Shown here: piece by piece, positions 14,118-32,231 of the stretch
Layout: each line of letters opens with the position of its first letter
Numbering within the stretch: the stretch's first letter is position 1
Notes under the pieces: model-generated
The model's database searches: none
What the model saw: only the letters and a program-made list of their open reading frames with translations
Told to the model about the DNA's origin: nothing
Assembly: GCA_028287505.1 (NCBI GenBank)
Contig: JAQBPN010000084.1
Span: 22,147-86,146, forward strand
DNA: 64,000 bases
Origin: Fibrobacterota bacterium
GTDB lineage: Bacteria; Fibrobacterota; Fibrobacteria; UBA11236
Reading direction: 5' to 3'
Made by a program: the position numbers and the translations under genes

Positions 14118-14383
14118 GGAAGTACTCTCCTGGATGGAATGGGATGTTGGTGAACGGGACTCGTGGCAATGGGTAGCCAAGGTAGGCGCGTCATGTTTCG
14201 GCCTTGAGAAAATCGGATTTCAATCGGGAATTATGCGAAGCTTCCCTTGTCTTTCCCCCGCCGGCTACGCACAAATTGCCGGGATTTTTTACACTGCGTC
14301 ATGAAAAAGGCTTGAATTCTCCTTGCCATACTTGACGTTTTCTTGATACCATCGTCCTCGAGATCTCAAACGATGCAGGGAGA

Positions 14384-15592: not shown

Positions 15593-15739
15593 CCTGATTC
15601 CGGAAGGAGCCGGGCGCACCCGGCTCCGGCCATCCCACTCTCTTCACTCCCTCCACTCCCGAATCCACCGCCGAGACAATCGTCAAGGAGGCGTCCTGCA
15701 GCCAGGCGCAACAGGCCATGGCGCGGGTCAGGGTCGCGC

Positions 15740-16969
15740 TCAAGGCACGCGTTTGAAGATCAGGGAGGTATTGATGCCGCCGAAGGCGAAGTTGTTGGTC
15801 ATCACGTGTTCGGTGGACAGGCGGCGCGGGCCTTCCATCACGTAATCCAGATCCGCGCAACGCGGGTCCACGTTCACGAGGTTCAAGGTGGGGGACACCC
15901 AATCGTTCCGCATCATCTCGATGGTCATCCAGGCTTCCAGCGCGCCGCAGGCCCCCAGGGTGTGTCCGAAGTAGCTCTTCAGGGAGCTGATCGGCACTTT
16001 GCGGCCGAAGACTTCGCGCGTGGCCGCGGTCTCGGCGATATCGCCGTGTTCGGTGGCGGTGCCGTGGGCGTTCACGTAGCCGATGGCTTCCCCGCTCAGG
16101 GAGGCGTCCCGCAGGGCGAGTTTCATGGCCACGCTCATGGTCTCGGAAGAAGGCTGGGTCACGTGGCTGCCGTCGCAATTGGTGCCGAAGCCGATCACCT
16201 CCGCATGGATGCGCGCGCCCCGGGCCAGGGCATGCTCGCGCTCTTCCAGGATCAGGGTGCCGGCGCCTTCGCCCACCACCAGGCCGTCGCGATCGCGGTC
16301 GAAAGGCCGGGGGGATTTGGTGGGGCTGTCGTTTTTCACCGAGGTGGCGAACAGGGTGTCGAACACGGCCGCCTCCGTGGGCGTCAGCTCCTCCGCGCCG
16401 CCCGCGATCATGACCGTCTGCCGGCCGCTCTGGATGGCCTCATAGGCCAGGCCGATGGATTGGCTGCCGCTGGTGCAGGCCGTGGAGGTGGTGTACACGC
16501 GGCCCTGCAATCCGAAATAGACGGCGATGTTGACGGAGGTGGTGTGCGGCATCATGCGGATATAGGTGGTGGCGGTGATGGCGTCCGTGGTCTTGTTGAG
16601 GAGCATGCGCGCGAAGTCGCCGATGGCCTCGGGGGATCCGGTGGAGGATCCGTAGGCCACGCCGGTCATGCCGCTCTTGAGGATGGGATGGCCGGTGAGA
16701 CCGGCGTCGCGCAGAGCCATGTCGGAAGCCCGCACCGCCATGCGCGCGACGGGACCCATGGAACGCAGGACCTTGCGCGGATAGAGATCGGCGGGAAGAT
16801 CGTACGGTTGCGCCGGGGCCGCCAGCAGGGTGTTGAGCCCCTGGTATTGGGTCCAATCCTCCATGCGCACCACCGCGCTGAGGCCTTTCCGGAGCCGATC
16901 CCCGGCCGCGGCCCAATCATTACCGATCGGCGAGATGCCCGCCATGCCGGTCACCACCACGCGTTTCAA
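15740..16969 (-). CDS. Beta-ketoacyl-ACP synthase (FabF/KAS-II-like), APE-cluster KS
   Basis: KRVVVTGMAGISPIG N-terminus, active-site TACTSGSQ, and His motifs NAHGTATEHGD and YFGHTLGACGA. TTG start shares TTGA with the upstream FabG stop. Confidence 0.8.
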   Translation of the reverse strand: MKRVVVTGMAGISPIGNDWAAAGDRLRKGLSAVVRMEDWTQYQGLNTLLAAPAQPYDLPADLYPRKVLRSMGPVARMAVRASDMALRDAGLTGHPILKSGMTGVAYGSSTGSPEAIGDFARMLLNKTTDAITATTYIRMMPHTTSVNIAVYFGLQGRVYTTSTACTSGSQSIGLAYEAIQSGRQTVMIAGGAEELTPTEAAVFDTLFATSVKNDSPTKSPRPFDRDRDGLVVGEGAGTLILEEREHALARGARIHAEVIGFGTNCDGSHVTQPSSETMSVAMKLALRDASLSGEAIGYVNAHGTATEHGDIAETAATREVFGRKVPISSLKSYFGHTLGACGALEAWMTIEMMRNDWVSPTLNLVNVDPRCADLDYVMEGPRRLSTEHVMTNNFAFGGINTSLIFKRVP

Positions 16970-17700
16970 GAACTCAATCCTCCGTCCACGGCGAACACCT
17001 GGCGGGTAATATACGAAGCTTCTTCGGACATCAGGAACGCCACCAGACCGGCCACCTCTTCGGGCTTGCCGGCGCGTTGCAGGGGGATGAGTTCCATGAG
17101 CTTTTCCAATACTTCCTCGCGGACCATCTCCGTGCCTATCAGCCCGGGCGCCACGCAATTGACCGTGATCTTGCGCTTGGCCAATTCCAGCGCCAGCGAC
17201 TTGGTGGCGGCGATGACGCCGGCCTTGGCCGCCGCGTAGTTGGCCTGGCCCCGGTTTCCCATCAGTCCCGACACCGACGCGATGGTGACGATCCGCCCCG
17301 GCAGCCGCCTCTGGATCATGGGCATGACCAGCGGGCGCAGGACATTGTAGAAGCTGTCCAGGTCCGTGCGGATGACGGTATCCCACTCCTCCCCGCTCAT
17401 GCCGGGGAAAGGCGCGTCCGCGGTGATGCCGGCGTTGCACACCACTCCGTAGTACGCCTCGTGGGATTCCAGATCGGCTTCCAGCACGGCCAAGGCTTCG
17501 GCCCGGTCCGCGATGTCGAAATGGATGGCCCGGGCCGATCCGCCCGCGGCCTGGATTGCGTCCACGGTTTCGCCCGTGGATCCGCCCGCTTTGCGCCCGT
17601 GCACCACCAAAGCATATCCGTCCCGGGCCAGGCGGATGGCCACGGCGCGGCCGATGCCCCGGCTGCTCCCGGTCACAAGGATGGACTTGGCCCCGTTCAT
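16966..17700 (-). CDS. fabG: 3-oxoacyl-ACP reductase (SDR, FabG-like)
   Basis: TGSSRGIGRAVA Rossmann motif, NAG, and YAAAKAG catalytic Tyr-xxx-Lys. Confidence 0.8.
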   Translation of the reverse strand: MNGAKSILVTGSSRGIGRAVAIRLARDGYALVVHGRKAGGSTGETVDAIQAAGGSARAIHFDIADRAEALAVLEADLESHEAYYGVVCNAGITADAPFPGMSGEEWDTVIRTDLDSFYNVLRPLVMPMIQRRLPGRIVTIASVSGLMGNRGQANYAAAKAGVIAATKSLALELAKRKITVNCVAPGLIGTEMVREEVLEKLMELIPLQRAGKPEEVAGLVAFLMSEEASYITRQVFAVDGGLSS

Positions 17701-18170
17701 GTGGATCTTTCCTCGAGGAATTTCCGGATATCCGGCACGTCGATCACGGTGATTTGCGCTTGGGCCAGGATGCGGCCGCCCGGATCCCGTATCCGGCAGT
17801 GCATGCTGCTGACTCCGTTTTCCTGAAAGATATCTATGCGGGCCAGCACTTCCAATTCCTGGCCGTCCTTGAATACCGGCTCCTCCGCGGTGAATTCGCG
17901 CGTGCCCAGGAGCATGCCCACCTTGACTTCGCCGCCGGAGGCCAGGCCCTGGGCTCCGGAATAGGCGGCCACGGTCTGGGCCATGTATTCCAGGCCCACC
18001 CAGGCGGGCACGCCGTCCCCCGCGAAGAACGGGCTGGCGGGCGTGATGCGCACCTTGGCCTTGAAGCTGTCGCCTTCCATGCCGCAGGCTTCGTCGATGA
18101 GGATCATGGGCGCGCGGTGGGGCAGCAGTTGGGCGATGGGACGGCGGCAGATTTCGATCAAGTCGTTCAT
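17697..18170 (-). CDS. Hot-dog-fold 3-hydroxyacyl-ACP dehydratase (FabZ/ApeI-like)
   Basis: MNDLIEICRRPIAQLLPHRAPMILID... is FabZ-like. 157 aa. ATGA overlap with the upstream KS stop. Confidence 0.7.
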   Translation of the reverse strand: MNDLIEICRRPIAQLLPHRAPMILIDEACGMEGDSFKAKVRITPASPFFAGDGVPAWVGLEYMAQTVAAYSGAQGLASGGEVKVGMLLGTREFTAEEPVFKDGQELEVLARIDIFQENGVSSMHCRIRDPGGRILAQAQITVIDVPDIRKFLEERST

Positions 18171-19351
18171 GGCGCGCCCAGCAGGAGGGAAACGTTGGTC
18201 CCGCCGAATCCGAAGACGTTGCTGAGGGCGAAACGGAGGGGCCCCGGCGCCTTGCCTCCGGATCGCACCAGGTCCATGGGTTCGAGATCCGGATCCACCG
18301 CGCCGTCGTTCACTTGCGGGGGAAGGCATCCCTCCGGGTCCGCCAAAAGTGCCCAGCATATGCCCGCTTCCAGGGCTCCGGCCGCGCCCAGGGTATGCCC
18401 GGTCAGGGCCTTGGTGGAGGAACAGGCCACGCCGCCGGGAAACACCGCGCGCATGGCCCGGGATTCCATGACGTCGTTCTGGAGGGTCCCGGTACCATGC
18501 AGGTTTACGTAACCGACTTGATACGGTTCCACGCCCGCGTCCCTTAGGGCCGCCGCCATCGCATCCCGGGCGCCTTCGCCGCCGGGAAGGGGCGCGGAGA
18601 TGTTGTGCGCGTCCGAGGTTTCCCCTGCGCCCAGCAGGCGGACCGTTCCACGGTCGCGCCGCATGACGAAAAAGGCGGCCGCTTCCCCGATATTGATGCC
18701 CCTGCGATTGGGGCTGAAGGGAAGGCAGGGCTCCGGCGAAAGGGCCCCCAGGGCGGAGAAGCCGCGCAAGGTGAATTCGCACAGGGTGTCCACCCCGCCG
18801 ACCAGTACGGCATCGCAAACTCCCAGGCGGAGCAGACGGCGCCCCGAAGCCAGGGCCTTGGCGGAAGAAGAACAGGCGGTGGAAACCGTGAAGGCGGGCC
18901 CCTTGAGGCCCCAGGCCAGGGCCAGGAACTCCGCGGGCGATCCCAGTTCCATCTGCGCGTAGGCGAAAGAACGGGGCAGGGATCCGTTTTCCTTCGCCGA
19001 CAGGAATGCGGCTTCGGCTTCCGCCATGCCGGAAGTGGTGGTGCCCACCACCACGCCCACGCGGCCGGCTCCGAACGCGGCGACCGCCTGCAGCACCTCC
19101 GCTTCGATTTGCCGCGAGGTATACAGGGCCAGCCCGTTGTTGCGCGTCCTGTGCCCGATTGCGTATCCGTCCAAGGCGGGAAGCGCCGGTGATACCTCTC
19201 CCACGGTCTGGCGCTGCCCGGGAGTCCAGTGGTCGCGGGCGACCAGGCCGGGACTGACGCCCTTGCGCAGATTGGCCAGGATAGCCGGGGTCCCGTCTCC
19301 GGCGGCGCACGTCATTCCCGGCGCGCTGAGAAAAACGGCCTCTCGTTTCAC
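18167..19351 (-). CDS. Beta-ketoacyl synthase family protein (second KS, CLF-like partner)
   Basis: KAS fold with TACSSSAKAL Cys motif, HGTGT and GHTLGAAG. GTG start overlaps the upstream stop (GTGA). Confidence 0.7.
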   Translation of the reverse strand: MKREAVFLSAPGMTCAAGDGTPAILANLRKGVSPGLVARDHWTPGQRQTVGEVSPALPALDGYAIGHRTRNNGLALYTSRQIEAEVLQAVAAFGAGRVGVVVGTTTSGMAEAEAAFLSAKENGSLPRSFAYAQMELGSPAEFLALAWGLKGPAFTVSTACSSSAKALASGRRLLRLGVCDAVLVGGVDTLCEFTLRGFSALGALSPEPCLPFSPNRRGINIGEAAAFFVMRRDRGTVRLLGAGETSDAHNISAPLPGGEGARDAMAAALRDAGVEPYQVGYVNLHGTGTLQNDVMESRAMRAVFPGGVACSSTKALTGHTLGAAGALEAGICWALLADPEGCLPPQVNDGAVDPDLEPMDLVRSGGKAPGPLRFALSNVFGFGGTNVSLLLGAP

Positions 19352-19848
19352 TGCGAGTCCCGTTCCACCGTGGTCACGTGCACCTGGTAGCCTTCGGCCA
19401 GATGATCGACCAGGACGCCTTCCCCTGTTTCCCCGCCCTCGCCGGCTTCCGGTCTGACGGACACCCAAGGACGCCCCCGCCAGGATAGCTTCCGTTCCGG
19501 GCCCTTGAAATCCGCGCTCCATCCCGTCTTGGCGAACACGCGCGTCAGGGAGGACTCGGGCCAATTCACGAGGACGATATCGCGCAGGATGGCTTCCCCG
19601 TCGATGGCCACCGGCAGGTTGGGGTCGCTTTCCTGCGCCACTTTTCCGCCCGACCAGGTGATGAGCACCAGGCGTTGTCCCATGGGACTCAGGCCCGCCA
19701 GGGTGAATGTCTTCCCGTCGTTCTCGATCACGGCCATGAGTTCCAGCGACTTGCCCTGGCGCTCCAACCTCAGGGATTGCACCCGACGGCCGGGCATGGT
19801 TCCGGTTTCCAGGGGAGGCAAGTCCCAGGCGGTGGGACGAGGGTGCAT
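19348..19848 (-). CDS. Small DUF3261-like protein of APE clusters; true start may lie within the upstream 24-bp repeat tract
   Basis: 166-aa C-terminal part (MHPRPTAWDLPPLE...HVTTVERDSQ). The frame stays open upstream through the repeats, which encode a LLTTGCAL-type hydrophobic/lipobox-like peptide. Confidence 0.4.
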   Translation of the reverse strand: MHPRPTAWDLPPLETGTMPGRRVQSLRLERQGKSLELMAVIENDGKTFTLAGLSPMGQRLVLITWSGGKVAQESDPNLPVAIDGEAILRDIVLVNWPESSLTRVFAKTGWSADFKGPERKLSWRGRPWVSVRPEAGEGGETGEGVLVDHLAEGYQVHVTTVERDSQ

Positions 19849-19990
19849 GAGGGCGCAGCCCGTGGTGAGCAAAAGGGCGCAGCCCGTTGTCAAAAAGAAG
19901 GCGCAGCCCGTGGTGAGCAAAAGGGCGCGGCCCGTGGCAAGAAAAAGGGCGTAGCCCGTGGTCAATAAAATGGCGCAGCGCGTGGCTGCG
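19849..19990. repeat. In-frame 24-bp tandem repeat, ~6 copies (GGCGCAGCCCGTGGTGAGCAAAAG-like units)
   Basis: Consecutive units GGGCGCAGCCCGTGGTGAGCAAAA, GGGCGCAGCCCGTTGTCAAAAAGAAG, GCGCAGCCCGTGGTGAGCAAAAG, GGCGCGGCCCGTGGCAAGAAAAAG, GGCGTAGCCCGTGGTCAATAAAAT. They lie between the halogenase-like gene stop (19995) and the DUF3261-like gene. On the minus strand they encode L(T/A)TG(C/Y/R)A(L/F)(L/F) octapeptides. Confidence 0.6.
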
Positions 19991-19994
19991 GCCG

Positions 19995-21239
19995 TCAGGA
20001 ACCTGGTGCCGCGCAAAGTTCCTCCAGAACCTTCAGGCGGGACGGATCGGCGACATAGGGATTGGACCTGTCCCAGGCGTATCCGGCCAGGATGGAACAA
20101 ATCATCGCCTTCACTTCCGGCTGCTGCCCGGGAAAGAAAATGACGTCCTGGAATCCGCCCCGGTACCAGGAATCCACGAAGGCGCGGAATGCGTCCACGC
20201 CGCGGCGCAGAGGGATATCGTACTCGCCGGCCCAATCGACGGCGGCCCCGGAGAGGTGTCTTTCCACCAGGGGCGCGACCAGGCTGGCCGAACGCATGGC
20301 GATGGTCACACCCGAACTGAAAACCGGATCGAGGAACTCGCCGGCATTGCCGAGCAGGGCGAAGGAAGGCCCATGCAGGGAGGCGACGTTCGCGGCATAG
20401 CCCTTGAGGGATCGGGCCGGCGTATCCCAGACCGCGTTGCTGAGCATATCGTTGAGGGCGGGGGTTTCCGCCACGATGGCTTTGAGGAGGGCGGTATCGT
20501 CCGCTCCGGGATTTTTTTGCCGGACGTGCTCCAGCAGGCGCGGTTCCGCCACCACGCCGATGGAACAGCGGCCATTGGAGAACGGGATCAGCCAATACCA
20601 GATGGCCTTGTCATCCGGGTGCACGCTGACCAGGATCTTCTCGCGGTCCATGCCGCCATGGGGTATGCCGTCGCGGATATGCGTGAACAGGGCCATGCGC
20701 ACCGGGAATTCGGAAGGGGTTTCCAGCTTCAACAGCCGGGGCAGCAGGCGTCCGAAGCCGGTGGCGTCCAGAACGAAGCGGGCCTTTATTTCCAGGTCGC
20801 CGCCGGGATGCCTGATGGTCAAGCGCCCTCCCGTGCCGTCCATGGCCACCGCGGTCACTTCATGGCGATAGTGCACGGGAACGCCTTGGGCGGCCACGGC
20901 ATCGATGAGCACTTTGTCGAAATCGGCGCGCACCACCTGGAAGGTCGTGCTCCAACCCTTGCTGCTCTTGTCGCGGAAGTCGAAGACGGAGGAACGTTCG
21001 CCGCGGCGGAAGGCCGCGCCGTTCTTGTGCTGGAAGCCCGCTTCCACCACCGGGCGCAGCAATCCGGCTTCTTCCAGGATTTCCATGGTCTGGGGCAGCA
21101 GGCTCTCGCCGATGGAAAAACGCGGGAAGGTCTCCCGTTCGAAAACGGCGACCTTCAATCCCCGCTTATGCAGCAACGCCGCGGCCAGGCTCCCGGACGG
21201 GCCGGCGCCCAGTATCGCAACGTCCAGATCATGAGCCAT
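19995..21239 (-). CDS. FAD-dependent oxidoreductase / halogenase-like (tryptophan-halogenase fold)
   Basis: DVAILGAGPSGSLAA GxGxxG FAD motif; flavin-monooxygenase-like throughout. The start could alternatively be 21260 or 21272. Confidence 0.7.
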   Translation of the reverse strand: MAHDLDVAILGAGPSGSLAAALLHKRGLKVAVFERETFPRFSIGESLLPQTMEILEEAGLLRPVVEAGFQHKNGAAFRRGERSSVFDFRDKSSKGWSTTFQVVRADFDKVLIDAVAAQGVPVHYRHEVTAVAMDGTGGRLTIRHPGGDLEIKARFVLDATGFGRLLPRLLKLETPSEFPVRMALFTHIRDGIPHGGMDREKILVSVHPDDKAIWYWLIPFSNGRCSIGVVAEPRLLEHVRQKNPGADDTALLKAIVAETPALNDMLSNAVWDTPARSLKGYAANVASLHGPSFALLGNAGEFLDPVFSSGVTIAMRSASLVAPLVERHLSGAAVDWAGEYDIPLRRGVDAFRAFVDSWYRGGFQDVIFFPGQQPEVKAMICSILAGYAWDRSNPYVADPSRLKVLEELCAAPGS

Positions 21240-24642: not shown

Positions 24643-26198
24643 GGGCCTGCCTCCAAGTCTCCGCCCACCAGAGCCGGGTCCCGCGCGCGTAGTCCTTCCA
24701 GCAGGCTGCGCAGATCGTCTTCCAGGGACCGGTCCGCCTGGACCAGGGCGCTGCGCCCGCGCGTCCAGACCAAGGCGGCGCCCAAGGGACCGTGGAGATC
24801 CGCGGCGACGCGGCCCTGCTCGCGCATACGCAATTCCACTCCCTGGCAGGCGGCCAGCAGGCCGCAAGCCGCCACCTGTTCGGTCAATTCCAGGACGCGC
24901 CGGCAATCGCGGGCCGCGAGCGTGCCCAGGCTCACCTTGTCCTGGTTGTGGCTTTCCGTGGAACGGGAGAACACGCTGGCGGGCATGCACAGTTTCAGGG
25001 CTTCCGCCGTGCAGGCGGACGCGGTGATCTGCAGGGCCTTGAGCCCGTGGTCGGTGGCGGATTCCGCGCCCACGGCGCCGCTCAGGTTGGCGGGCAGGCC
25101 GGCGTTCATTTTCGGATCGACCAGCAGGGCGATCTGGCGATCGATGAGATCGGCCAGGTTGGCCACCGTAGTCTTCATCGAGTCCATCACGTGGCAGATA
25201 TGCCCGCCGTAGAAATGGCCGCCGTGGTAGACCACGCCGTTCTCGGCGTCCACTATCGGGTTGTCGTTGGAGCTGTTGAGTTCGGTTTCGATGAAGTCCC
25301 GGTACCAGGGCAGGCAGTCCTCCAGCACGCCGATCACGTGCGGGGCGCAGCGGATGGAATACCTGTCCTGAAGGCTCCCCCCCGGCGTAACCTGATCCCG
25401 TTGCGCCAGATCCCGGCGGATGCGCGCGGCCGCGGCCCCCATGCCCGTGAAAGGCTTGACCGCGAAAAGGCCTTCGGCGAAGTGGCCGGCGTTGCCGTCC
25501 AGGGCCACCAGGGTCAGGGCCGTCAGGCGGGAGCAGACCAGCGTCAGGTATTCCGCCCGGGCGAAGTTCAGGCAGGCGATGGCGGTCATGACGGCGGTGC
25601 CGTTCATCATCGCCAGGGCTTCTTTGGGCCGCAGGCTGTAAGGATGCAGTCCCGCGGTCCGCAGCGCCTCCGCCGCGGGTACCATATCGCCGTCCTTCCA
25701 CGCCCGGCGTTCGCCGCACAGCACGGCCGCCACGTAGGAAAGGGGAGTGAGATCGCCGCTGGCGCCCACGGAACCTTCTTCGGGAATGACGGGCAGGATG
25801 TCGTGCTGCAAAAGCGCCTGCAGCCCTTCCAGCAACGCGAAGCTCACGCCCGAATAGCCCCGGGCCAGGGAGATGAGGCGGGAAGCCAGGATGGCGCGCG
25901 TCTCTTCTTCGCAGAACGGCCGCCCCAGGCCCACTCCGTGGTAGCGGACCAGCTTGGCGGGCAGCAGGGAGGCGAGCAGCGGGGAAACCTGCACGGACAC
26001 GTTCTCGCCGTAGCCGGTGGTCACGCCGTAGACGGTCCCGTTCCGCTCGATGAGGGCGTCGATGAGATCGGCGCCTTTGTTGATGCGGACGCGGAAGCCT
26101 CCGCTCTCGCCCATCCGCGATGCGGCCTTCCTTTCGGCCAAGGCCACCACATCCTCAAGGCGCAACCTGCCGCCGTCGAAAACAACCGTCCGCTTCAT
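24639..26198 (-). CDS. Aromatic amino-acid ammonia-lyase (HAL/PAL/TAL family, MIO-forming)
   Basis: GASGDLTPLS carries the Ala-Ser-Gly MIO precursor triad. 519 aa. HAL/PAL-like throughout (GYGENVS, NSSNDNP). Confidence 0.8.
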   Translation of the reverse strand: MKRTVVFDGGRLRLEDVVALAERKAASRMGESGGFRVRINKGADLIDALIERNGTVYGVTTGYGENVSVQVSPLLASLLPAKLVRYHGVGLGRPFCEEETRAILASRLISLARGYSGVSFALLEGLQALLQHDILPVIPEEGSVGASGDLTPLSYVAAVLCGERRAWKDGDMVPAAEALRTAGLHPYSLRPKEALAMMNGTAVMTAIACLNFARAEYLTLVCSRLTALTLVALDGNAGHFAEGLFAVKPFTGMGAAAARIRRDLAQRDQVTPGGSLQDRYSIRCAPHVIGVLEDCLPWYRDFIETELNSSNDNPIVDAENGVVYHGGHFYGGHICHVMDSMKTTVANLADLIDRQIALLVDPKMNAGLPANLSGAVGAESATDHGLKALQITASACTAEALKLCMPASVFSRSTESHNQDKVSLGTLAARDCRRVLELTEQVAACGLLAACQGVELRMREQGRVAADLHGPLGAALVWTRGRSALVQADRSLEDDLRSLLEGLRARDPALVGGDLEAGP

Positions 26199-27136
26199 GG
26201 CTTACCAACTTCCGGGTCGCCCCAAAAACGATAGATGTTGCCCCAGAGCATGGGCGCCAAAGTGCAATAGTACGAAAGTCTGTCCGCATACCGGCCGGCC
26301 AGGGCCGCCAGGTCTTCGCGCCGCGTGGCGCGGTTCAAGGCGATCCGTTCCGAAAAGGCCTCGTAATGGATGTCATAGCGGCCGTTCCGGCCGATGCAGA
26401 AGAACAGGAATACCGGGCATTCCAGCACCGAAGCCAGCACGTAGGGCCCGATGGGCAAAGGCGCCGGATGCGCCAGGAACGGCGCCCAGGCGATCCCTTT
26501 GCCGTCCAGGGGAACCCGGTCCCCGGCGATCAGGACCACCTCTCCCGCATCGATCTTGTCCTTCAACAGCATGGCGGTGGCGGGGGAAATGTCGCTCACC
26601 TGGAACAGGGACATCTGGCTCATGGGATTGATCCGGCTCATCAGGGCGATGAAACGCGGATTGTGCTTGGTGTGCACCAGCACGTTCACGTGGACCTTCC
26701 GCTCGCTCAGGGCCAGGTGGCGCGCCACTTCCATGTTCCCCAGGTGGGAACCGATCAGCAATATACCCTTGCCCCGTTCGAGCGCGCGCACCACCGCCTC
26801 GCGGCCGTGGCGGGCGAAGCGGGGAGGAGCGCTTTGGGGATCCCAGGCCAGGACCCTTTCCAGCACGCCCTCTCCGGAAACCAGCAGATGCCTGAAGACG
26901 GAAAAGTAGGAAGGCCTTCCTTTCGATCCCCGGAACGCGTAGAGGCGCTCCAGATACTGGCGGGACGCGTCCCGCTTGGATTTGCGAGTGAGGAAGAAAT
27001 AGAGCACCACCGGAACCAACGCGATGCGGAAAGGCCAGCGGCCCAGGCTGCGGCTGACCTCGAACAGAAAGCGCAGGCCCCAGGCGGAACCCAATTCCGC
27101 CGTGCCGGCCCAATGATCCTCGGCTACCGGTCTCAT
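26195..27136 (-). CDS. LpxL/HtrB-type lysophospholipid (lipid A-like) acyltransferase
   Basis: Internal Met start gives a ~313-aa LPLAT-family protein. 4-bp overlaps at both ends. Confidence 0.6.
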   Translation of the reverse strand: MRPVAEDHWAGTAELGSAWGLRFLFEVSRSLGRWPFRIALVPVVLYFFLTRKSKRDASRQYLERLYAFRGSKGRPSYFSVFRHLLVSGEGVLERVLAWDPQSAPPRFARHGREAVVRALERGKGILLIGSHLGNMEVARHLALSERKVHVNVLVHTKHNPRFIALMSRINPMSQMSLFQVSDISPATAMLLKDKIDAGEVVLIAGDRVPLDGKGIAWAPFLAHPAPLPIGPYVLASVLECPVFLFFCIGRNGRYDIHYEAFSERIALNRATRREDLAALAGRYADRLSYYCTLAPMLWGNIYRFWGDPEVGKP

Positions 27137-27870
27137 GCGATGGCCTTGCGCAGAAGCGGGACAAAGCGCGCCAGCATCCCGAAGAACAGCCGGGTATGCA
27201 TCCAGGATATGAGGGTATTGTCCAGCCCCAGGCGGAAATGGGACACGCCGCCTTCCGGATAGTTCACGGCCACGGGCAGAAAGCGCAAGGCGAGCCCGGC
27301 CCACTTGAGACGCACCAGCACCTCCGGATCGAAGTCCATGCGGTTTCCGGTCCGGCCCGCGTCGAGCACCCGCAGGGTGGCGGCCAGGGGATAGACCCGC
27401 AAGCCGCACATCCCATCGGGAATGGCCCTGGAAAGGGTGTTCACCTTGACCCAGAAATTGGTCAGCCGCCTTCCGTACAGGCGGGAGGATGGAACGCTGG
27501 CGTCGAACACCGGCCGGCCGCAGATGACGGCGTCCGGTTCCTTTTCGGCCGCGGCCAGGAGTTCCGGCAAGGCCCGCAAATCGTGTTGTCCGTCCGCGTC
27601 CACCTGGAGCGCATGGGTGAATCCCAGCTTCGCGGCCAGCCGCAATCCGGCCTTCACGGCCGCGCCCTTGCCGCCGTTCCTGTCCAGGCGCGCCAGGGTA
27701 ACCTGGGTGTTATGCGCGGCGGCCAGGCTTTCCAGGGCCCTTCGGCACGCCTCGCCGGAGCCGTCGTCCACCACCACGCAGGGAATCCCGTTGGGGCGCA
27801 GTCCCGCCAACACTTTTTGCAACGGGCCCGCGTGCTCATAGACCGGAATGACGATGCAGGGGCGGAACAT
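27133..27870 (-). CDS. Family-2 glycosyltransferase
   Basis: CIVIPVYEHAGPLQKVL...VVVDDGSGE matches the GT2 N-terminal DxD region. Confidence 0.7.
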   Translation of the reverse strand: MFRPCIVIPVYEHAGPLQKVLAGLRPNGIPCVVVDDGSGEACRRALESLAAAHNTQVTLARLDRNGGKGAAVKAGLRLAAKLGFTHALQVDADGQHDLRALPELLAAAEKEPDAVICGRPVFDASVPSSRLYGRRLTNFWVKVNTLSRAIPDGMCGLRVYPLAATLRVLDAGRTGNRMDFDPEVLVRLKWAGLALRFLPVAVNYPEGGVSHFRLGLDNTLISWMHTRLFFGMLARFVPLLRKAIA

Positions 27871-27880
27871 CAGGAGGCCG

Positions 27881-29626
27881 TTACGCTGTGAAGATGGCCT
27901 GGCCGCTGGCGTGCCGGCCCTGGGAGGAATCGTATTTGAACGAGATGCCGGATTTGTCCTTGAGGCGCGCGAGCTCCAGGCTGATGCGCATGCCGGGAAA
28001 GATGGGGCGCTGGAACTTAAGGGCCTGCAATCCGCGGAAAGCGCCGAAGGGGCCGAACAGGCGGGCGCCTTCCAGGATGGCCCAATCCAATTGCACCACG
28101 CCCGGCAACAAAGGCAGTTGGGGAAAGTGGCCGCGGAAATGTTCCAGCTCCGCGGGAATCTCCAGCTCCAGCACGGCGGCGCCGTTTTCCAACCGCCGCG
28201 TTTCCAGGATCACGGGGTTGACCTGGGGATCGAACAGGGACCGCAAGGCGGCCAGCGCAGTCTTGCCCGCGGCATTGGCCGGCATGGTTTCCACCAGCCG
28301 CCACCGCTTGGGCAGCAGCACGCGATCGAAACCGTTCAAGAGATGCGCGCGCAGGGACTGCACCAGGGCGGCCCTGGCTTCGCTGCCGCGCGTGGGAATC
28401 GCGCTGTCCCTGAGCCGCAACACCGCGCCCAGGGTGTCCCGATCGCCCGCCAGCACCAGCACGCGGGCCTCGGCTACGCGGGGATGGGCGGTCAGCAGGT
28501 CTTCCATCGCCGTGAGGGATAGGCGCTTCTCTTCCACTTTCACAATCCGGTCCGCGCGGCCCAGCAGCCGGAAGCCACCCTCGACCGCGCTCACGCGATC
28601 GGAGGTGGCGAACGGCTTCGAAGCCTTCATATGCGGCGATTTCACCAGCAGGAGTTCGCCCGCTTCGCCGATGGCGATTTCAACTTTCGGAAAAGCGGTC
28701 CAGGGCGGATCTTCTCCGGCCCGCCGGCGCCAAGCGATGCCGCCGGTTTCCGAACTCCCGTAGATTTCCACCGGGTCCGCGCCCAGCAGATGCGCGCAGG
28801 CGGGGACGCAGGCCCAGGGCAGCGGGCCGCCCGAGGAAAAAACCGCCGTCAACGGTCTGAAGCCTACCGTAGCGCCGGACGCATCCGGAAGATGCGGCTC
28901 GGGGAGACGCGCCTCCGGGAGGCGGCGCAAGAAAGCGGGGGAGGCCACCAGCACCACGGGACCCGGAGCTTGCAGCGACTCAGCCAATTCCTCGGGAAAG
29001 CGTATGAGGCGATCGGAAAAAGGCCGGCCCGCGGCCAGGGGCCAGAGGCACCGGAACAACAGGCCGTAGATATGCTGATGGCCGACCGTGGAAAGCACGC
29101 GCGCGCCGGAAAGACCCGCGCCCAGCACGGCCTCCAGCGTCTCCACCTCGTTGCCCAGATCGCTCCAGGTCTTTTCGACGGCCAAGGGCAGGCCCGTGGA
29201 TCCGGAAGTGAAGATGATCACCGGTAGATCCGGAACGGCCGGCGGTAAGGGAGTTGCGTGAGTCGCGGGAGCCGGTGCCGCGAAGGGCGGTTCGTTCCAC
29301 GTCGTCCGCATTCCGGGCCGCCCCGGGCCGCCGGCGGGAAAATCCCCCAGCAAGACGTCCGCCCTGCCGGCCAGCAGGGCGGTTGTGATCTCCGTCGCAT
29401 CTCCTGCGATTACCGCGGTGCATCCGGCGGCCCAGCAACCCAGCAGCGCGGCCGCGAAGTCGAAGGTATTCCCGAAATGCAGGGCCGCGCGCTTTGCGCC
29501 CGCTCCCTTCAGCGCATCGCGCCAGGCGTCGCGGAGCGCGGCGAGCGCGGTCCAATCCTGTCCGGGCGCAAGCCCCACGGGCCCGGAGAGGCCGGTCCCG
29601 GCCGCCATGTCGGTAAACCTCAGCAT
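27881..29626 (-). CDS. AMP-dependent synthetase/ligase (adenylation) fused to a C-terminal FabA/FabZ-like dehydratase
   Basis: Adenylation motifs IIFTSGSTGLPLAV and YGSSETGG. C-terminal ~140 aa carries LEHFRGHFPQLPLLPGVVQLDW, a hot-dog dehydratase motif. Confidence 0.65.
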   Translation of the reverse strand: MLRFTDMAAGTGLSGPVGLAPGQDWTALAALRDAWRDALKGAGAKRAALHFGNTFDFAAALLGCWAAGCTAVIAGDATEITTALLAGRADVLLGDFPAGGPGRPGMRTTWNEPPFAAPAPATHATPLPPAVPDLPVIIFTSGSTGLPLAVEKTWSDLGNEVETLEAVLGAGLSGARVLSTVGHQHIYGLLFRCLWPLAAGRPFSDRLIRFPEELAESLQAPGPVVLVASPAFLRRLPEARLPEPHLPDASGATVGFRPLTAVFSSGGPLPWACVPACAHLLGADPVEIYGSSETGGIAWRRRAGEDPPWTAFPKVEIAIGEAGELLLVKSPHMKASKPFATSDRVSAVEGGFRLLGRADRIVKVEEKRLSLTAMEDLLTAHPRVAEARVLVLAGDRDTLGAVLRLRDSAIPTRGSEARAALVQSLRAHLLNGFDRVLLPKRWRLVETMPANAAGKTALAALRSLFDPQVNPVILETRRLENGAAVLELEIPAELEHFRGHFPQLPLLPGVVQLDWAILEGARLFGPFGAFRGLQALKFQRPIFPGMRISLELARLKDKSGISFKYDSSQGRHASGQAIFTA

Positions 29627-29633
29627 GGGCGCT

Positions 29634-30191
29634 TTACCTGTGCCTCGCCGACATCACCCGGCGGCGCACCAGCCATTCCCCCGCGAACAGAACGCCCATC
29701 AGCAGGTAGGCCAGGAACCCGTTGTAGAAAGCCCATAGTCCCGGATTGCCGGAAAGGGCGGTGGCCGCCGCGGCGCAGGCGTTGAGCGCGAAAAAACCGC
29801 ACCAGACCTGGGTGACCCGGCGCGTATAGCGTACGCCATGCTCATCAAGATCGGGATGGCGGAAGCGCGCCAGGCGTTCGATGACGGTGGGAGGAATCCA
29901 CAGGCTCAGGCCGAAAACCAGAAGCAGGCTGAGATTTACGGCCACGGGGTAGTACAGCACGGATGCCTCGCCCCAGATCCAGGCCAGGGCGCCGGCGCCG
30001 GCGATCATCCCGATCAAGGCGTAGACCGGGACCTTGCGCACGATGGTTTTCCCCCAGCGCAGGGCCAGCACCGCCAGCAGCCCCAGGGCGATGAAGCGGG
30101 CGGGGATGCCTTGGCGAAGCCCGGCATAGACCAGCGCCGGATAGGCCGCCAGCAGAACCGCGGTCACGGCGGTGAGCTTGGACGGCGCCAC
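29634..30191 (-). CDS. Integral membrane protein (5-6 TM) of the APE cluster
   Basis: 185 aa, entirely hydrophobic helices. Confidence 0.5.
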   Translation of the reverse strand: MAPSKLTAVTAVLLAAYPALVYAGLRQGIPARFIALGLLAVLALRWGKTIVRKVPVYALIGMIAGAGALAWIWGEASVLYYPVAVNLSLLLVFGLSLWIPPTVIERLARFRHPDLDEHGVRYTRRVTQVWCGFFALNACAAAATALSGNPGLWAFYNGFLAYLLMGVLFAGEWLVRRRVMSARHR

Positions 30192-30193
30192 GG

Positions 30194-30463
30194 CTACTCG
30201 TTCACCAGCTTTTCGATGACGTTCACGACATCGTCGATGGTGCGCACGGTCTTGAACGGCTCCGGCTGCATGCGCTTGCCGATCAGCTTCTGCAGCTTGA
30301 CCATCAGATCGATGGCGTCGATGCTGTCGATTTCCAGGTCTTTGTAGAGTTCGGCGCCGGGAACCAACCGGCTTTTTTCGATGCCGAAGGTTTCGTTCAA
30401 AGTGGAAACCACCGCGGCCATGATTTCGTCCCGGGTCCTGATGCTCATGCTATTTCTCCGCAA
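30194..30463 (-). CDS. Acyl carrier protein
   Basis: LEIDSIDAIDLMVKL contains the phosphopantetheine-attachment Ser. Probable start at MSIRTR (~30448). Confidence 0.7.
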   Translation of the reverse strand: MRRNSMSIRTRDEIMAAVVSTLNETFGIEKSRLVPGAELYKDLEIDSIDAIDLMVKLQKLIGKRMQPEPFKTVRTIDDVVNVIEKLVNE

Positions 30464-30722
30464 CCGGGGCGCGGCGGCTTTCCACGAAGCCGGCGAGTTT
30501 TCTGACGCTGGAAAAATGTTCCCGGTTCTCCTTGGAGTCCGACGACATCTTGATTCCGTACTTTTTCTGGATGGCGATGCCGAGCTCCAGGGCGTCGATG
30601 GAATCCAATCCCAATCCGTCCCCGAAAATGGCGGCTTCCGCGTCGATGGATTCGGGGGTGACCTCTTCCAGTTTGAGCGTCGTGATGATCAGCTCCTTTA
30701 TTTCCAATTCAAGCTCCGGCAC
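30450..30722 (-). CDS. Acyl carrier protein (second, tandem)
   Basis: GLDSIDALELGIAI; tandem ACPs are an APE-cluster hallmark. Confidence 0.7.
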   Translation of the reverse strand: MPELELEIKELIITTLKLEEVTPESIDAEAAIFGDGLGLDSIDALELGIAIQKKYGIKMSSDSKENREHFSSVRKLAGFVESRRAPVAEK

Positions 30723-31485
30723 TGCAAAGGTCCTTGTTGAAGTAATACTGAAGATGATCGTTCAGGTCCCGGGCCGCCAGCGCCGGTTGGTCCGGGCGCG
30801 CCTTCAGGAACGGGCTGATGGGGATGTCGTCTTTCACGCGCAGGACAATCCTCATCCGGTGTTCCGGGGCCAGATACCACGCACCGCCCTTGTGGAGGTT
30901 GCTGCGGGTGCTTTCAATCACCACCGGAGTCACGTTTTGCCGGGTGCGGACCGCTACCTGGGCCGCGCCTTTCCGGAATTTCACGGGCATGCCCGGCGGC
31001 GTGCGCGTCCCCTCGGGGAAGATGATCACGTTGTTGCCCGAGTCGAGGCTCTTGCGGCAGCGCGCCATGGTGGATTCCCCTTCGTCGTTGCGGATGTAGC
31101 CGGCCAGCAGCACCGGCCAGCGCTTGAACCAATCGTTCAGCAAGGCGCTCTTGACGAAGCAATCGGCCTGGGGAATGACGGAGGCGAGCAGCACGAAATC
31201 GATGAGCGTGGGATGATTGGCAAGCACCAGATTGCCGGACCTGCGCAGGGCTTCCAGGCCTTCGTAGCGGACATGGAGCACTCCCGTGATCCGCATCAGC
31301 AGTACGAAGAGATGGAATCCCCTTTGGATGATAATGCGGCCCACACGGTGGCGCGATTCTTCCTTGCGCCAGACCAGCCATACCAGGGGGATGCCGAATA
31401 GACCCAAGGTCGCCCCCCCCAGGGCGAAGATGGCGAAGCACATGAGGGTGGCCGCCGTACGCCAGGTCCGCCAAAGCAGTTTCAT
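30709..31485 (-). CDS. PlsC-type 1-acyl-sn-glycerol-3-phosphate/lysophospholipid acyltransferase
   Basis: NHPTLIDF (HxxxxD) and FPEGTRT motifs. N-terminal TM. ATGA overlap upstream. Confidence 0.65.
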   Translation of the reverse strand: MKLLWRTWRTAATLMCFAIFALGGATLGLFGIPLVWLVWRKEESRHRVGRIIIQRGFHLFVLLMRITGVLHVRYEGLEALRRSGNLVLANHPTLIDFVLLASVIPQADCFVKSALLNDWFKRWPVLLAGYIRNDEGESTMARCRKSLDSGNNVIIFPEGTRTPPGMPVKFRKGAAQVAVRTRQNVTPVVIESTRSNLHKGGAWYLAPEHRMRIVLRVKDDIPISPFLKARPDQPALAARDLNDHLQYYFNKDLCSAGA

Positions 31486-32231
31486 GGGCGGACCCAATCC
31501 CAACGGCGGGTTCCGCGCCGCCAGGAGGCGCTCTTCCCGTTCCCGGCCCACATTTTCAGGAAGACCAGGGCCTGGGGCGGAACGGTTTCCCGGTCCGGCT
31601 CCGATTGCGTTTCCCACAAGGACAATTCGAATTCTTCGCCTCCTGAGGCTCCCAGCTCAAGCCCAAGGGCATAGCCCCCCGGTTCCCGGTCCCAATGCCC
31701 GTCGAGCGCGGAGGGCGGCACGGGATCGCTCATTACCACCAGCACGCGATCATGGCCTTCCAGGACCATGCCTTGGGCCTCCAGCAATGCGGCGGTGAAA
31801 CTCTCGCCGCGGGAGGAAAGCGAAGAGCTCATGCTGCGATCGCCTTTGGCGATGGAGAACTGGCCGGCCGCGGCGTTGTGCACGGACAGGCTGAAGTCCA
31901 TGGGGGAAGCCAACTCCTCCTCCGCCTGCGCCCTGAGCATGGCGACGGATCGCGCCACCTGCCCGTGCCGGCTGGCGAACACGCAGGGAAGGTCGTTTCC
32001 CGGAGGCGCCAGGCGGAACGCGACTTCCAGTCCCAGGCGATCGGCCGCATCCGCGCGCCGCCGGAGTATGGGCGGCATGGCGGAAACGGGGGCGGTGTGG
32101 GTCAAAGTATCGCTCCATTCCCGGTCTGAAGACGCCCATTCCCGCCATGCTTCCCGGTCAGAAAGCGACGGTCCCGCCCAGGCCTCCCAGGCCAGAATTC
32201 GAAGGGGCAGTCGAAAGCAATTTGAAAGCAT
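31482..32231 (-). CDS. First gene of the operon: KS N-terminal-domain-like (PF13723-type) protein
   Basis: 249 aa, no catalytic Cys. AT-rich promoter-like region immediately upstream (32232-32300). Confidence 0.4.
   Translation of the reverse strand: MLSNCFRLPLRILAWEAWAGPSLSDREAWREWASSDREWSDTLTHTAPVSAMPPILRRRADAADRLGLEVAFRLAPPGNDLPCVFASRHGQVARSVAMLRAQAEEELASPMDFSLSVHNAAAGQFSIAKGDRSMSSSLSSRGESFTAALLEAQGMVLEGHDRVLVVMSDPVPPSALDGHWDREPGGYALGLELGASGGEEFELSLWETQSEPDRETVPPQALVFLKMWAGNGKSASWRRGTRRWDWVRP

Follow-up and report, generated by a model that had tools for sequence, protein, structure and literature searches.

The region examined here lies in a 64-kb stretch of DNA (hereafter the window) and consists of 18 intact ORFs, all encoded on the minus strand, which fill positions 15740 to 32231 exactly, from the ATG of the first gene at 32231 to the stop of the final gene at 15740 (Table 1). 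A GC3 frame plot supports their coding frames. Nine of the 17 gene junctions are 4-bp overlaps of the ATGA type, another three overlap by 8–32 bp and the others are gaps of 1–10 nt, with the exception of G13–G14, the G14 start being uncertain (candidates are TTG at 20016, 19965, 19920, 19893 or 19872, or ATG at 19848). The original prediction of 18 co-directional, tightly joined genes was thus confirmed. An independent related MAG (L083, GCA_025360005.1) carries the genes in identical order with 75–79% nucleotide identity; the cluster is neither split nor rearranged in this second assembly and the arrangement is therefore no assembly artefact.

Table 1. Genes and features of the cluster, in order of transcription (positions refer to the window; bit scores are followed by the model cut-off where one applies).
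Feature	Position	Strand	aa	Assignment	Family matches and motifs	Identity to E. coli protein
G01	31482..32231	-	249	ApeC, chain-length-factor partner of ketosynthase ApeO	PF13723, 171 bits	29% (full length)
G02	30709..31485	-	258	ApeD, lysophospholipid acyltransferase	PF01553	44%
G03	30450..30722	-	90	ApeE, acyl carrier protein	PP-binding; NF006617, 99 bits (70); LDSID	59%
G04	30194..30448	-	84	ApeF, second acyl carrier protein	PP-binding; NF003757, 107 bits (65)	49%
G05	29634..30191	-	185	ApeG, membrane protein	no match in Pfam or NCBIfam searches	55% (residues 78-183)
G06	27881..29626	-	581	ApeH-ApeI fusion: aryl-acid adenylating/ACP-loading domain and hot-dog dehydratase domain	AMP-binding, residues 45-311; ApeI-like PF22818, residues 484-567	32% (ApeH), 38% (ApeI)
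G07	27133..27870	-	245	N-terminal (GT2) half of ApeJ, separate gene	PF00535	53% (ApeJ residues 5-242)
G08	26195..27136	-	313	C-terminal (LpxL-like acyltransferase) half of ApeJ	PF03279 (Lip_A_acyltrans)	36% (ApeJ residues 246-554)
G09	24639..26198	-	519	MIO-dependent aromatic amino-acid ammonia-lyase, APE-linked subfamily	PF00221 (Lyase_aromatic), 503 bits	
G10	24232..24642	-	136	ApeK, 4HBT-type thioesterase	PF13279, PF03061	42%
G11	23597..24235	-	212	ApeL, LolA-like periplasmic carrier	PF03548, PF19574	23% (E=2e-11)
G12	21229..23604	-	791	ApeM, MMPL/RND-type exporter	PF03176	29% (full length)
G13	19995..21260	-	421	Flavin-dependent halogenase-like enzyme	PF04820 (Trp_halogenase), PF01494 (FAD_binding_3)	
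G14	19348..20016	-		ApeN, DUF3261 LolB-like lipoprotein	PF11659, 87 bits	30%
24-bp tandem repeat	19850..19985	-		In G14 signal-peptide region	5.7 copies; TRF score 160-202	
G15	18167..19351	-	394	ApeO, active elongating ketosynthase pairing with ApeC	NF006618, 478 bits (407); TACSS Cys and both His	45%
G16	17697..18170	-	157	ApeP, hot-dog dehydratase	PF22817 (ApeP-like), 70 bits	34%
G17	16966..17700	-	244	ApeQ, ketoreductase of FabG2 type	TIGR01831 (fabG_rel), 352 bits (339)	56%
G18	15740..16969	-	409	ApeR, second (initiating) ketosynthase	NF006587, 690 bits (470)	60% (full length)

Sixteen of the 18 genes match ApeC to ApeR of E. coli CFT073 one-to-one and in colinear order, with identities of 23–60%, in agreement with the expectation of an aryl polyene (APE) cluster of type-II-PKS-like organization with lipid-attachment and export genes. 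Beside the family-specific Pfam models ApeI-like and ApeP-like, the NCBIfam models PRK09116, PRK09185, PRK09184, PRK05350 and fabG_rel were matched, the latter five above their cut-offs, and every item of the domain list given originally was found with Pfam and NCBIfam. Both PP-binding acyl carrier proteins carry the DS motif, and the Cys-His-His set is complete in two ketosynthases, G15 and G18. Compared to the E. coli cluster, ApeH and ApeI are fused in one gene, ApeJ is split in two, apeA and apeB are absent and two genes without E. coli counterparts are inserted, encoding the ammonia-lyase G09 and the halogenase-like flavoenzyme G13; the rest corresponds to ApeC–ApeR. Neither a flavin reductase gene nor a PPTase gene was found within the window. 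In the signal-peptide region of G14 the tandem repeat multiplies, in translation, a lipobox-like LLTTGCA unit, whereas the relatives L083 and L001 possess one lipobox only; this expansion is odd and could impair export.

Comparison with the E. coli proteins also changed some assignments. The roles of ketosynthase (KS) and chain length factor (CLF) had been swapped: G01, which carries PF13723, corresponds to E. coli ApeC, named ‘chain length factor’ in RefSeq, and ApeO, the active KS, is G15, previously taken for a CLF-like KS. In the PDB, G15 matched 6qsp_A (E=4e-96) and 7f28_B (E=4e-84), and G01 matched 6qsp_B (E=2e-21), the partner chain of the ApeO-like KS 6qsp_A, as well as 7f28_A from Acinetobacter (E=3e-10); the two 6qsp chains are annotated as beta-ketoacyl synthase and uncharacterized protein. 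Judged by identity to the E. coli proteins, ApeD and the split ApeJ simply account for both acyltransferases and the glycosyltransferase, which had been singled out originally, and the best NCBIfam match of G07, polyprenyl-phospho-GalNAc synthase, is likewise that of E. coli ApeJ.

The supposedly unusual character of the gene complement did not survive comparison with other genomes, as all 18 genes occur in identical order, including the fusion of adenylation and dehydratase domains, in Janthinobacterium HH01. An orthologous lyase is encoded in at least 593 genome stretches, and 66 loci were complete, i.e., contained all core genes; these derive from Burkholderiales, Xanthomonadales, Methylococcales and Myxococcota. 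Colinearity with the 18-gene arrangement of the window, fusion included, was observed in 62 of them, the ApeH-ApeI fusion is kept in 65 and the halogenase is present in 51. An ammonia-lyase is also treated as a standard component of the reference cluster APE_Vf from Aliivibrio fischeri, and listed with its genes, in published antiSMASH/MIBiG comparisons (PMC5851621, PMC8719888). We therefore regard it as very probable, judging from gene content and order, that the region represents an intact ape-type operon for an aryl polyene lipid, belonging to a widespread subfamily that carries an ammonia-lyase.

The source is labelled as a Fibrobacterota MAG by NCBI and a TIGR02147 ‘Fsuc_second’ paralogue is encoded on the same contig, in line with the non-proteobacterial background assumed before. 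Nevertheless, proteobacterial DNA might have been mis-binned or chimerically assembled into this MAG, since the GC content is 0.65–0.68 in the cluster and 0.57–0.62 in the flanks, and the named orthologues with 55–61% identity all belong to Proteobacteria or Myxococcota. We consider this quite improbable: the sampled proteobacterial proteins all show at most 69% identity, whereas the closest lyases (74–86%) are encoded in other MAGs, among them one with the label Fibrobacteria, and form a group placed outside the proteobacterial clade in a neighbor-joining tree without bootstrap support. Besides the ‘Fsuc_second’ gene on the contig, the independent MAG L083 shares not only the cluster but also the downstream Lsa36-like flank.

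The annotation of G09 as an MIO enzyme was corroborated by the Pfam match and the ASG triad (residues 146–148); further key residues are Tyr57, Tyr86-His87, HGGHFYGGH and NQDK. It scores below every NCBIfam equivalog cut-off, with 388 bits for hutH (TIGR01225, cut-off 539), 415 for BagA (1000) and 285 for FlxA (700). That a housekeeping histidase merely lies inside the cluster appears extremely improbable. Although His87 is equivalent in position to His83 of HAL, TIGR01225 gives the score just mentioned and many orthologues are labelled ‘histidine ammonia-lyase’ by JGI, that score misses the cut-off, identity to bona fide HutH adjoining hutI, hutG and hutU is only about 35%, compared to 55–61% for cluster-linked orthologues, and NQDK stands where HutH has NQED. 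Moreover, the window is free of hut genes, and G09 overlaps both ape neighbors by 4 bp in a position kept in 62 of the 66 loci.

Canonical selectivity pairs are His-Leu in TAL, Phe-Leu in PAL and Ser-His in HAL. The Tyr-His pair of G09 matches none of them; among 86 cluster-linked lyases, Phe-His occurs in 13, and HFY replaces the conserved GNFH/GNFQ motif in 85. The substrate of G09 is uncertain because of this non-canonical pair and the replaced motif. By these signatures G09 is a member of an uncharacterized MIO subfamily, for which no biochemically characterized representative was found in the searched literature. The best-scoring characterized relatives, the BagA TAL and the aminomutase SgTAM, use tyrosine, and His87 aligns with His93 of SgTAM; L-tyrosine is thus the most probable substrate, and a cinnamate/coumarate starter made in situ, as proposed originally, seems plausible. 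Were G09 instead a phenylalanine ammonia-lyase, a cinnamate starter and an unhydroxylated head group would result. The PAL model TIGR01226 scores G09 at 293 bits, and the switch position (His89 in RsTAL, Phe in PAL; aligned by residue numbering) carries an aromatic residue, Tyr in 62 of the 86 lyases and Phe in another 13, but never His. Phenylalanine is nonetheless distinctly unlikely in view of the tyrosine-using relatives and of the co-clustered halogenase, which groups with enzymes of the phenol/pyrrole type (CmlS, PltA, Bmp2, ChlB4) and needs an activated ring. Furthermore, to our knowledge all characterized APE, xanthomonadin and flexirubin pigments have hydroxyphenyl heads.

For G13 the halogenase-like character predicted earlier was upheld, as all four motifs, GAGPSG, Lys79 (GFQHKNG), WYWLIP and FLDPVFSSG, are present, each being kept in 53–56 of 56 cluster-linked homologues. 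The best PDB match was 3nix (2e-101), a Cytophaga hutchinsonii protein with no assigned function, followed by the halogenases ChlB4, CmlS, PltA and Bmp2. An oxidoreductase such as a flavin mono-oxygenase, which would hydroxylate or otherwise modify the ring or the lipid, is an unlikely alternative that still carries some weight: GenBank labels G13 only as ‘FAD-dependent oxidoreductase’, 3nix is described as an uncharacterized ‘flavoprotein/dehydrogenase’, and G13 matches FAD_binding_3 and, weakly, p-hydroxybenzoate hydroxylases. The hydroxylases reach E-values of about 1e-9, compared to about 1e-42 to 1e-30 for halogenases, and the conserved WxWxIP, FxxPxxSxG and the Lys aligned to the GF..K.G lysine of ChlB4 likewise speak against it. 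G13 hence looks like a genuine flavin-dependent halogenase. Across 65 loci, halogenase and ApeB methyltransferase tend to replace each other (halogenase only in 48, methyltransferase only in nine, both in two, neither in six; Fisher p = 7e-6, kinship of the loci being ignored), and this alternation together with the halogenase motifs suggests a halogenated phenol as aryl head.

A flexirubin-type cluster, whose polyene acid would be esterified to a dialkylresorcinol as in the Bacteroidota, was the former label. It could draw on the joint presence of ammonia-lyase and halogenase-like enzyme, on the Cytophaga origin of 3nix and on the host phylum, which like the Bacteroidota falls within the FCB group. 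However, no DarA/DarB-like genes for dialkylresorcinol formation were detected among all sizeable annotated ORFs of the window, and not only FlxA but also FlxB (257 bits, cut-off 340) and LolA2_flexi (33 bits, cut-off 125) stayed below the cut-offs, while the genes and their order agree with E. coli apeC–R, including the lipid-attachment enzymes ApeD and ApeJ. The label was accordingly dropped as highly improbable. Glycosylated, lipid-anchored aryl polyenes are already described, and the product can no longer be called a chemically uncharacterized type: the structure of a Xenorhabdus APE-GalNAc-phosphate-glycerolipid was solved (bioRxiv 10.1101/2020.12.19.423268), and brominated xanthomonadins, whose clusters contain a halogenase gene, are long known (PMC3691225).

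From homology and the published Ape protein roles and APE lipid structure (10.1101/2020.12.19.423268; PMC8253772) we infer the following route. The lyase G09 would remove ammonia from an aromatic amino acid and so release an aryl-acrylate; with L-tyrosine, the most probable substrate, this would be 4-coumarate. The adenylation domain of G06 (ApeH) would activate the aryl acid and load it directly onto the acyl carrier protein G03 (ApeE); for Xenorhabdus ApeH, direct loading of 4-hydroxybenzoate was demonstrated to proceed with no CoA intermediate. The best NCBIfam match of this domain, 4-coumarate-CoA ligase, is uninformative here, because E. coli ApeH, with 4-hydroxybenzoate as reported substrate, yields the same one. 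Extension with malonyl units would be started by G18 (ApeR) and continued by the KS:CLF pair G15:G01 (ApeO:ApeC), with reduction by G17 (ApeQ) in every round and dehydration to the all-trans polyene by the hot-dog pair of the C-terminal G06 domain (ApeI) and G16 (ApeP). G13 would tailor the phenol ring, a role for which sister clusters seem to use the ApeB methyltransferase instead. G10 (ApeK), G02 (ApeD) and the split ApeJ (G07 and G08) may then join the chromophore and another conjugated acyl chain, assembled on the acyl carrier protein G04 (ApeF), to a sugar-phosphate-glycerolipid, before G05, G12, G11 and G14 (ApeG, ApeM, ApeL and ApeN) carry the pigment lipid to the outer membrane.

Since genes and order match those of a cluster known from hundreds of Proteobacteria, the operon is an unremarkable representative of an established family, sitting in a Fibrobacterota genome. 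Its predicted product is a membrane-anchored yellow “aryl polyene” pigment, which in the outer membrane would protect the cell against oxidative stress.

The pigment cluster is real and intact but ordinary: it is a Fibrobacterota member of a type of aryl polyene (APE) cluster that is known and extremely common. All 18 ORFs (G01 to G18) are intact and their reading frames are backed by the GC3 frame plot. Every domain named in the original prediction was recovered with Pfam and NCBIfam, the end coordinates match (see the table), and the cluster was correctly delimited. The statement that most genes are joined by 4-bp overlaps applies, with the most plausible start codons, to nine of the 17 junctions; three others overlap by 8-32 bp, and the remaining ones are gapped by 1-10 nt. 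The junction between the halogenase-like gene G13 and G14 (ApeN) was excepted, because the start codon of G14 is rendered ambiguous by a 24-bp tandem repeat. In translation the repeat yields a lipobox-like unit, LLTTGCA(L/F)(L/F), several times over within the signal-peptide region of ApeN, the DUF3261 lipoprotein, and relatives carry a single lipobox (LLGGCA in L083, a locus from the related MAG GCA_025360005.1, and LAGCA in L001, the Janthinobacterium locus). Such a tract may be prone to slippage or phase-variable, or it may be an artefact of assembly. Neither the Rfam nor the tRNA scan yielded a hit in the window, and the promoter and terminator scan gave counts no better than those of shuffled sequence; the one promoter-like site upstream of G01 counts as no evidence.

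Coordinates of the features discussed (positions refer to the window unless another locus is named)
Feature	Coordinates	Strand	Remarks
Collagen-like ORF	8167-11478	plus	1103 aa; collagen triple-helix repeats (212 bits), Laminin_G_3, DUF2341; large protein, probably secreted or on the cell surface
Phytase-like esterase	12693-14180	minus	C-terminal PEP-CTERM sorting signal
Lsa36-family lipoprotein gene	14384-15592	plus	convergent to the cluster
Spacer after ApeR	15593-15739		~147 bp, from the ApeR stop to the end of the Lsa36-family gene
ape cluster, 18 genes	15740-32231	minus	15740, last stop codon; 32231, first ATG
Raised-GC part of the cluster	16001-30000		GC 0.65-0.68 (flanks 0.57-0.62)
Tandem repeat in G14 (ApeN)	19850-19985	minus	5' end of the gene; 5.7 copies
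Ammonia-lyase gene G09	24639-26198	minus	between ApeJ and ApeK
Promoter-like site	32811-32784	minus	upstream of G01
TIGR02147 gene	49115-50158	minus	'Fsuc_second' paralogue (232 bits); also DUF4423
PPTase gene of related MAG	L083 20559-21194		Sfp-like, after ApeR
PPTase gene of Janthinobacterium	L001 20380-21042		Sfp-like, after ApeR

The ape cluster of E. coli CFT073 was fetched and its proteins were compared with those of the window. Sixteen window genes correspond one-to-one and colinearly to ApeC, D, E, F, G, H, I, J, K, L, M, N, O, P, Q and R, with identities of 23-60%. Only two genes are without an E. coli counterpart, namely G09, which encodes an MIO-type ammonia-lyase, and G13, inserted between ApeM and ApeN. 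Features that had been regarded as special found their place in this comparison. The fusion of an AMP-ligase with a dehydratase is ApeH fused to ApeI (G06) and part of the standard complement. The two lipid acyltransferases and the glycosyltransferase, also described as distinctive, are ApeD (the PF01553 gene) and a split ApeJ, with one half encoded by the GT2 gene and the other by the gene of the LpxL-like acyltransferase; E. coli ApeJ is one protein of 558 aa. The unannotated membrane protein of the cluster was recognized as ApeG.

The labels of ketosynthase and chain-length factor (CLF) had been reversed: G01 (PF13723) is the CLF, in the truncated form typical of ApeC, and G15, in which Cys-His-His is kept, is the active ketosynthase. 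G15 and G01 matched chains A (E=4e-96) and B (2e-21) of 6qsp, which we take to be the Xenorhabdus ApeO:ApeC complex, with chains B and A of the Acinetobacter structure 7f28 as second matches, and identity to the E. coli proteins is 45% for G15 (ApeO) and 29% for G01 (ApeC). The second stand-alone ketosynthase, G18, reached 690 bits with NF006587 (cut-off 470; 60% identity to ApeR), and the ketoreductase G17 reached 352 bits with TIGR01831 (cut-off 339; 56% identity to ApeQ). The two hot-dog dehydratases matched PF22818 (ApeI, 38% identity to E. coli) and PF22817 (ApeP, 34%), the tandem ACPs G03 and G04 scored above the cut-offs of NF006617 and NF003757, and the A domain of G06 is 32% identical to E. 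coli ApeH. Among curated models, PRK09116, PRK09185, PRK09184, PRK05350 and fabG_rel (NCBIfam) were exceeded, and ApeI-like and ApeP-like (Pfam) were matched. The lipid-attachment set (ApeD, ApeJ, ApeK) and the export set (ApeG, ApeL, ApeM, ApeN) have reciprocal, colinear counterparts in CFT073. At the level of sequence, membership in the ape family is established by all defining features that could be tested. ApeA and the methyltransferase ApeB were not detected within the window, and tblastn revealed no PPTase anywhere in it. Both Janthinobacterium and the related MAG have an Sfp-like PPTase gene after ApeR; here it is missing, and a short spacer leads to the Lsa36-family gene.

The window thus has the 16 Ape proteins, their order and the single strand in common with the APE lipid (APEL) producers E. 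coli CFT073 (APE_Ec, apeA-R) and Xenorhabdus doucetiae, including the KS:CLF pair, the second ketosynthase, two hot-dog dehydratases, tandem ACPs, the lipid-attachment enzymes and LolA/MMPL/DUF3261 export. It differs from them in the fused ApeH-ApeI, the split ApeJ, the lack of ApeA and ApeB and the two inserted genes. Uncharacterized clusters in which the 18 genes recur in identical order, with the lyase, the ApeH-ApeI fusion and usually the halogenase among them, are found in Janthinobacterium sp. HH01 (with an additional PPTase), Stenotrophomonas maltophilia, the Ralstonia solanacearum megaplasmid (same core, with ApeJ fused), Methylobacter, Corallococcus and others. The protein identities to these orthologous clusters are only 24-69% and the phylum is a different one; many of them have the PPTase that the window lacks, and some harbor an ApeB methyltransferase in place of the halogenase.

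Homologs of the lyase number in the thousands. The closest (74-86% identity) derive from other MAGs, one of them labeled Fibrobacteria, and a dense block at 55-63% comprises Oxalobacteraceae, Rhodocyclaceae, Xanthomonadales and others; in a scan of species-representative genomes at least 593 genome stretches encode lyase relatives. When the 18 window proteins were run by tblastn against the fetched loci of relatives (L001-L086), nearly every long-enough locus carried the whole set. All core genes were present in 66 loci; colinearity with the window on one strand holds for 62 of these, a single HSP spans the fused ApeH-ApeI in 65, and the halogenase is encoded in 51. In the literature, Pseudomonas clusters have been compared with APE_Vf from Aliivibrio fischeri ES114 (MIBiG BGC0000837), in which ammonia-lyase and acyl/glycosyltransferase genes lie beside the PKS genes, and the ammonia-lyase was counted among the characteristic aryl-polyene genes (PMC5851621, PMC8719888). 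Since the ape order is widely shared and the lyase is listed in APE_Vf, the gene complement presented as distinctive in the original prediction is what a very widespread subfamily of such clusters normally contains. The gene order is conserved but not fixed, as two distant relatives are rearranged: L084 (ERZ18242345) has the lyase behind ApeQ and ApeI as a gene of its own, and in L085 (soil Ga0210388) the halogenase and an acyltransferase are inverted between two ACP genes.

Other pigment systems show less agreement. Xanthomonadins are built on 3- and 4-hydroxybenzoate starters provided by the chorismatase XanB2, and annotation of the window's ORFs showed no XanB2-type chorismatase domain. The xanthomonadin cluster of Xanthomonas resembles the window in its PKS pair, a type II PKS-like ketosynthase with an ORF16/ApeC-type partner, and in its halogenase gene, and its brominated outer-membrane APE pigments are a precedent for halogenated aryl polyenes (PMC3691225). 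With the chorismatase lacking and the gene order different, the analogy is a partial one. The designation as flexirubin-type, drawn from a functional parallel, had to be abandoned. Flexirubins, for which the tyrosine ammonia-lyase (TAL) FlxA supplies a coumarate starter and of which chlorinated variants exist, are esters of dialkylresorcinols formed via DarA/DarB in Chitinophaga and Flavobacterium. Neither a DarA-like nor a KS-III/DarB-like gene could be detected with Pfam and NCBIfam in the sizeable ORFs across the 64-kb window, and the flexirubin models were not reached (FlxA, 285 bits vs. 700; FlxB, 257 vs. 340; LolA2_flexi, 33 vs. 125).

The lyase G09 carries the ASG triad (residues 146-148), the catalytic Tyr57 and the carboxylate-binding pair Tyr280/Arg283, all of them invariant in an alignment of 24 orthologs, and the triad is present in all 86 cluster-linked lyases, i.e., those encoded inside such ape loci. 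By these features G09 can be assigned to the MIO-dependent ammonia-lyase/aminomutase superfamily. Within it, a histidase was ruled out. G09 did not reach the hutH models (TIGR01225, 388 bits vs. 539; NF006871, 382 vs. 524), shares ~35% identity with genuine HutH proteins whose genes adjoin hutI, hutG and hutU as opposed to 55-61% with cluster-linked orthologs, contains NQDK where HutH of S. meliloti has NQED, and overlaps both adjoining ape genes by 4 bp; hut genes are absent from the window. An active site of histidase type, which the original prediction named as refuting its reading, was not encountered, but a histidine shared with HAL makes the case less clean than that of a textbook TAL.

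This histidine belongs to the selectivity pair Tyr86-His87. His87 aligns with His93 of SgTAM and His83 of HAL, and Tyr86 corresponds to His89 of RsTAL by residue numbering against 2o6y, assuming no gaps. RsTAL His89-Leu90 is the canonical TAL selectivity pair, and numbering and alignment show that this His-Leu pair is absent from G09. G09 also scored below the cut-offs for FlxA, BagA, PAL and aminomutases. The tyrosine enzyme SgTAM has a Ser-His pair and thus the histidine in common with G09, so that G09 may use tyrosine, though without the hallmark of the canonical TAL class. We consider tyrosine the most likely substrate, since hydroxyphenyl heads are found in the characterized pigments of this class, tyrosine is also what the best-scoring characterized relatives act on, and the halogenase in the same cluster belongs to the phenol/pyrrole type. 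The chromophore of APE_Vf is a 4-hydroxyphenyl polyene acid, and its head group is reportedly dimethylated. For the E. coli APE, the starter 4-hydroxybenzoate is thought to derive from UbiC (PMC8253772). The best NCBIfam match of G06, TIGR02372 (4-coumarate-CoA ligase, 104 bits), is likewise the best match of E. coli ApeH (75 bits), which is reported to use 4-hydroxybenzoate, and therefore says nothing on coumarate versus hydroxybenzoate.

Among the 86 cluster-linked lyases the selectivity pair is Tyr-His in 62 and Phe-His in 13, and HGGHFYGGH (HFY) replaces the near-universal GNFH/GNFQ in 85 of the 86 (orthologs from L001-L086 and G09). The Tyr/Phe-His pair and HFY are a subfamily signature of which we found no description, and the literature searched contained no biochemical characterization of this subfamily; a paper listed for 'RmXAL' deals with bioproduction of cinnamate in Pseudomonas putida. 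Forming a tight clade far from HutH and bearing their own active-site signature, the cluster-linked lyases are a distinct subfamily.

For G13, the closest structure is 3nix, a Cytophaga protein of no assigned function (2e-101), followed by the halogenases ChlB4, CmlS, PltA, Bmp2 and RadH (1e-42 to 1e-30), with hydroxylases at ~1e-9. The protein contains the full set of flavin-dependent halogenase motifs, with GAGPSG at residue 18 (GxGxxG), Lys79, WYWLIP at 221 (WxWxIP) and FLDPVFSSG at 309 (FxxPxxSxG); in the alignment, Lys79 falls on the lysine of GF..K.G in ChlB4 (7fco) and 8zop, and each motif is kept in 53-56 of 56 cluster-linked homologs. In the 65 complete loci among L001-L086, the halogenase occurs alone in 48 and the ApeB-type methyltransferase alone in nine, both in two and neither in six (Fisher p = 7e-6, phylogeny not corrected for), which suggests that the two enzymes largely stand in for each other in tailoring the phenol ring. 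With the halogenase motifs complete and this alternation in line with it, the halogenated head group put forward originally is a reasonable prediction. That such a product has not been characterized chemically was too strong a statement: a preprint (10.1101/2020.12.19.423268) reports the complete structure of the APE lipid, and aryl polyenes carrying halogens are known. As far as we found, the product of an ape cluster with both lyase and halogenase is indeed undescribed.

On the basis of homology and synteny, and building on the published Xenorhabdus and E. coli work, we infer the following pathway. G09 would produce 4-coumarate, which the ApeH domain would adenylate and load onto ApeE. ApeR would initiate and ApeO:ApeC elongate the chain, each round involving reduction by ApeQ and dehydration by ApeI/ApeP, and G13 would modify the ring. 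ApeK, ApeD and the split ApeJ may then join two chains to a GalNAc-phosphate-glycerolipid, namely the chromophore and a second conjugated acyl chain built on ApeF, and ApeG, ApeM, ApeL and ApeN would carry the finished lipid to the outer membrane. The best match of the GT2 half of ApeJ (G07) is a polyprenyl-phospho-GalNAc synthase, as it is for E. coli ApeJ.

The non-proteobacterial background assumed for the cluster is supported by several observations. In GenBank the window proteins are products of a 95.7-kb contig from a 'Fibrobacteres/Fibrobacterota bacterium' MAG, and the same contig carries a protein of the paralogous family TIGR02147, named after Fibrobacter succinogenes, which supports the taxonomic label. 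The related MAG, which is independent of the present one, contains the whole cluster at 75-79% nucleotide identity together with the downstream Lsa36-like gene. In a neighbor-joining tree without bootstrap, the window lyase falls into a clade of MAGs outside the Proteobacteria/Myxococcota clade, and none of the proteobacterial proteins sampled exceeds 69% identity to the window proteins. The GC content of the cluster lies mildly above that of its flanks, a difference compatible with old acquisition or gene-class bias, and recent transfer or mis-binning of the cluster is unlikely. Regarding aryl polyenes in Fibrobacterota, the literature search yielded only generic metagenome surveys. Upstream of the Lsa36-family gene, the sorting signal of the phytase-like esterase implies an exosortase system in the organism.

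A more far-reaching interpretation is that the APE-linked lyases are a functionally distinct, never-characterized MIO branch, whose substrate or product differs from those of TAL, PAL and HAL (e.g., a ring-substituted tyrosine) and which, together with the halogenase, would lead to an undescribed, vertically inherited halogenated APE outer-membrane lipid in Fibrobacterota. The Tyr/Phe-His pair, HFY instead of NFH/NFQ and the missing HAL glutamate are cited in its favor; taken as a whole we regard it as rather improbable. For an ordinary ape cluster with tyrosine as the likely lyase substrate, the residual novelty lies in the uncharacterized lyase subfamily and the predicted halogenated product, which are traits of hundreds of proteobacterial genomes and not of this window. 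The signature of the lyase clade and the alternation of halogenase and ApeB apply to hundreds of genomes, and with Janthinobacterium, Stenotrophomonas maltophilia and Ralstonia solanacearum the subfamily has culturable carriers.
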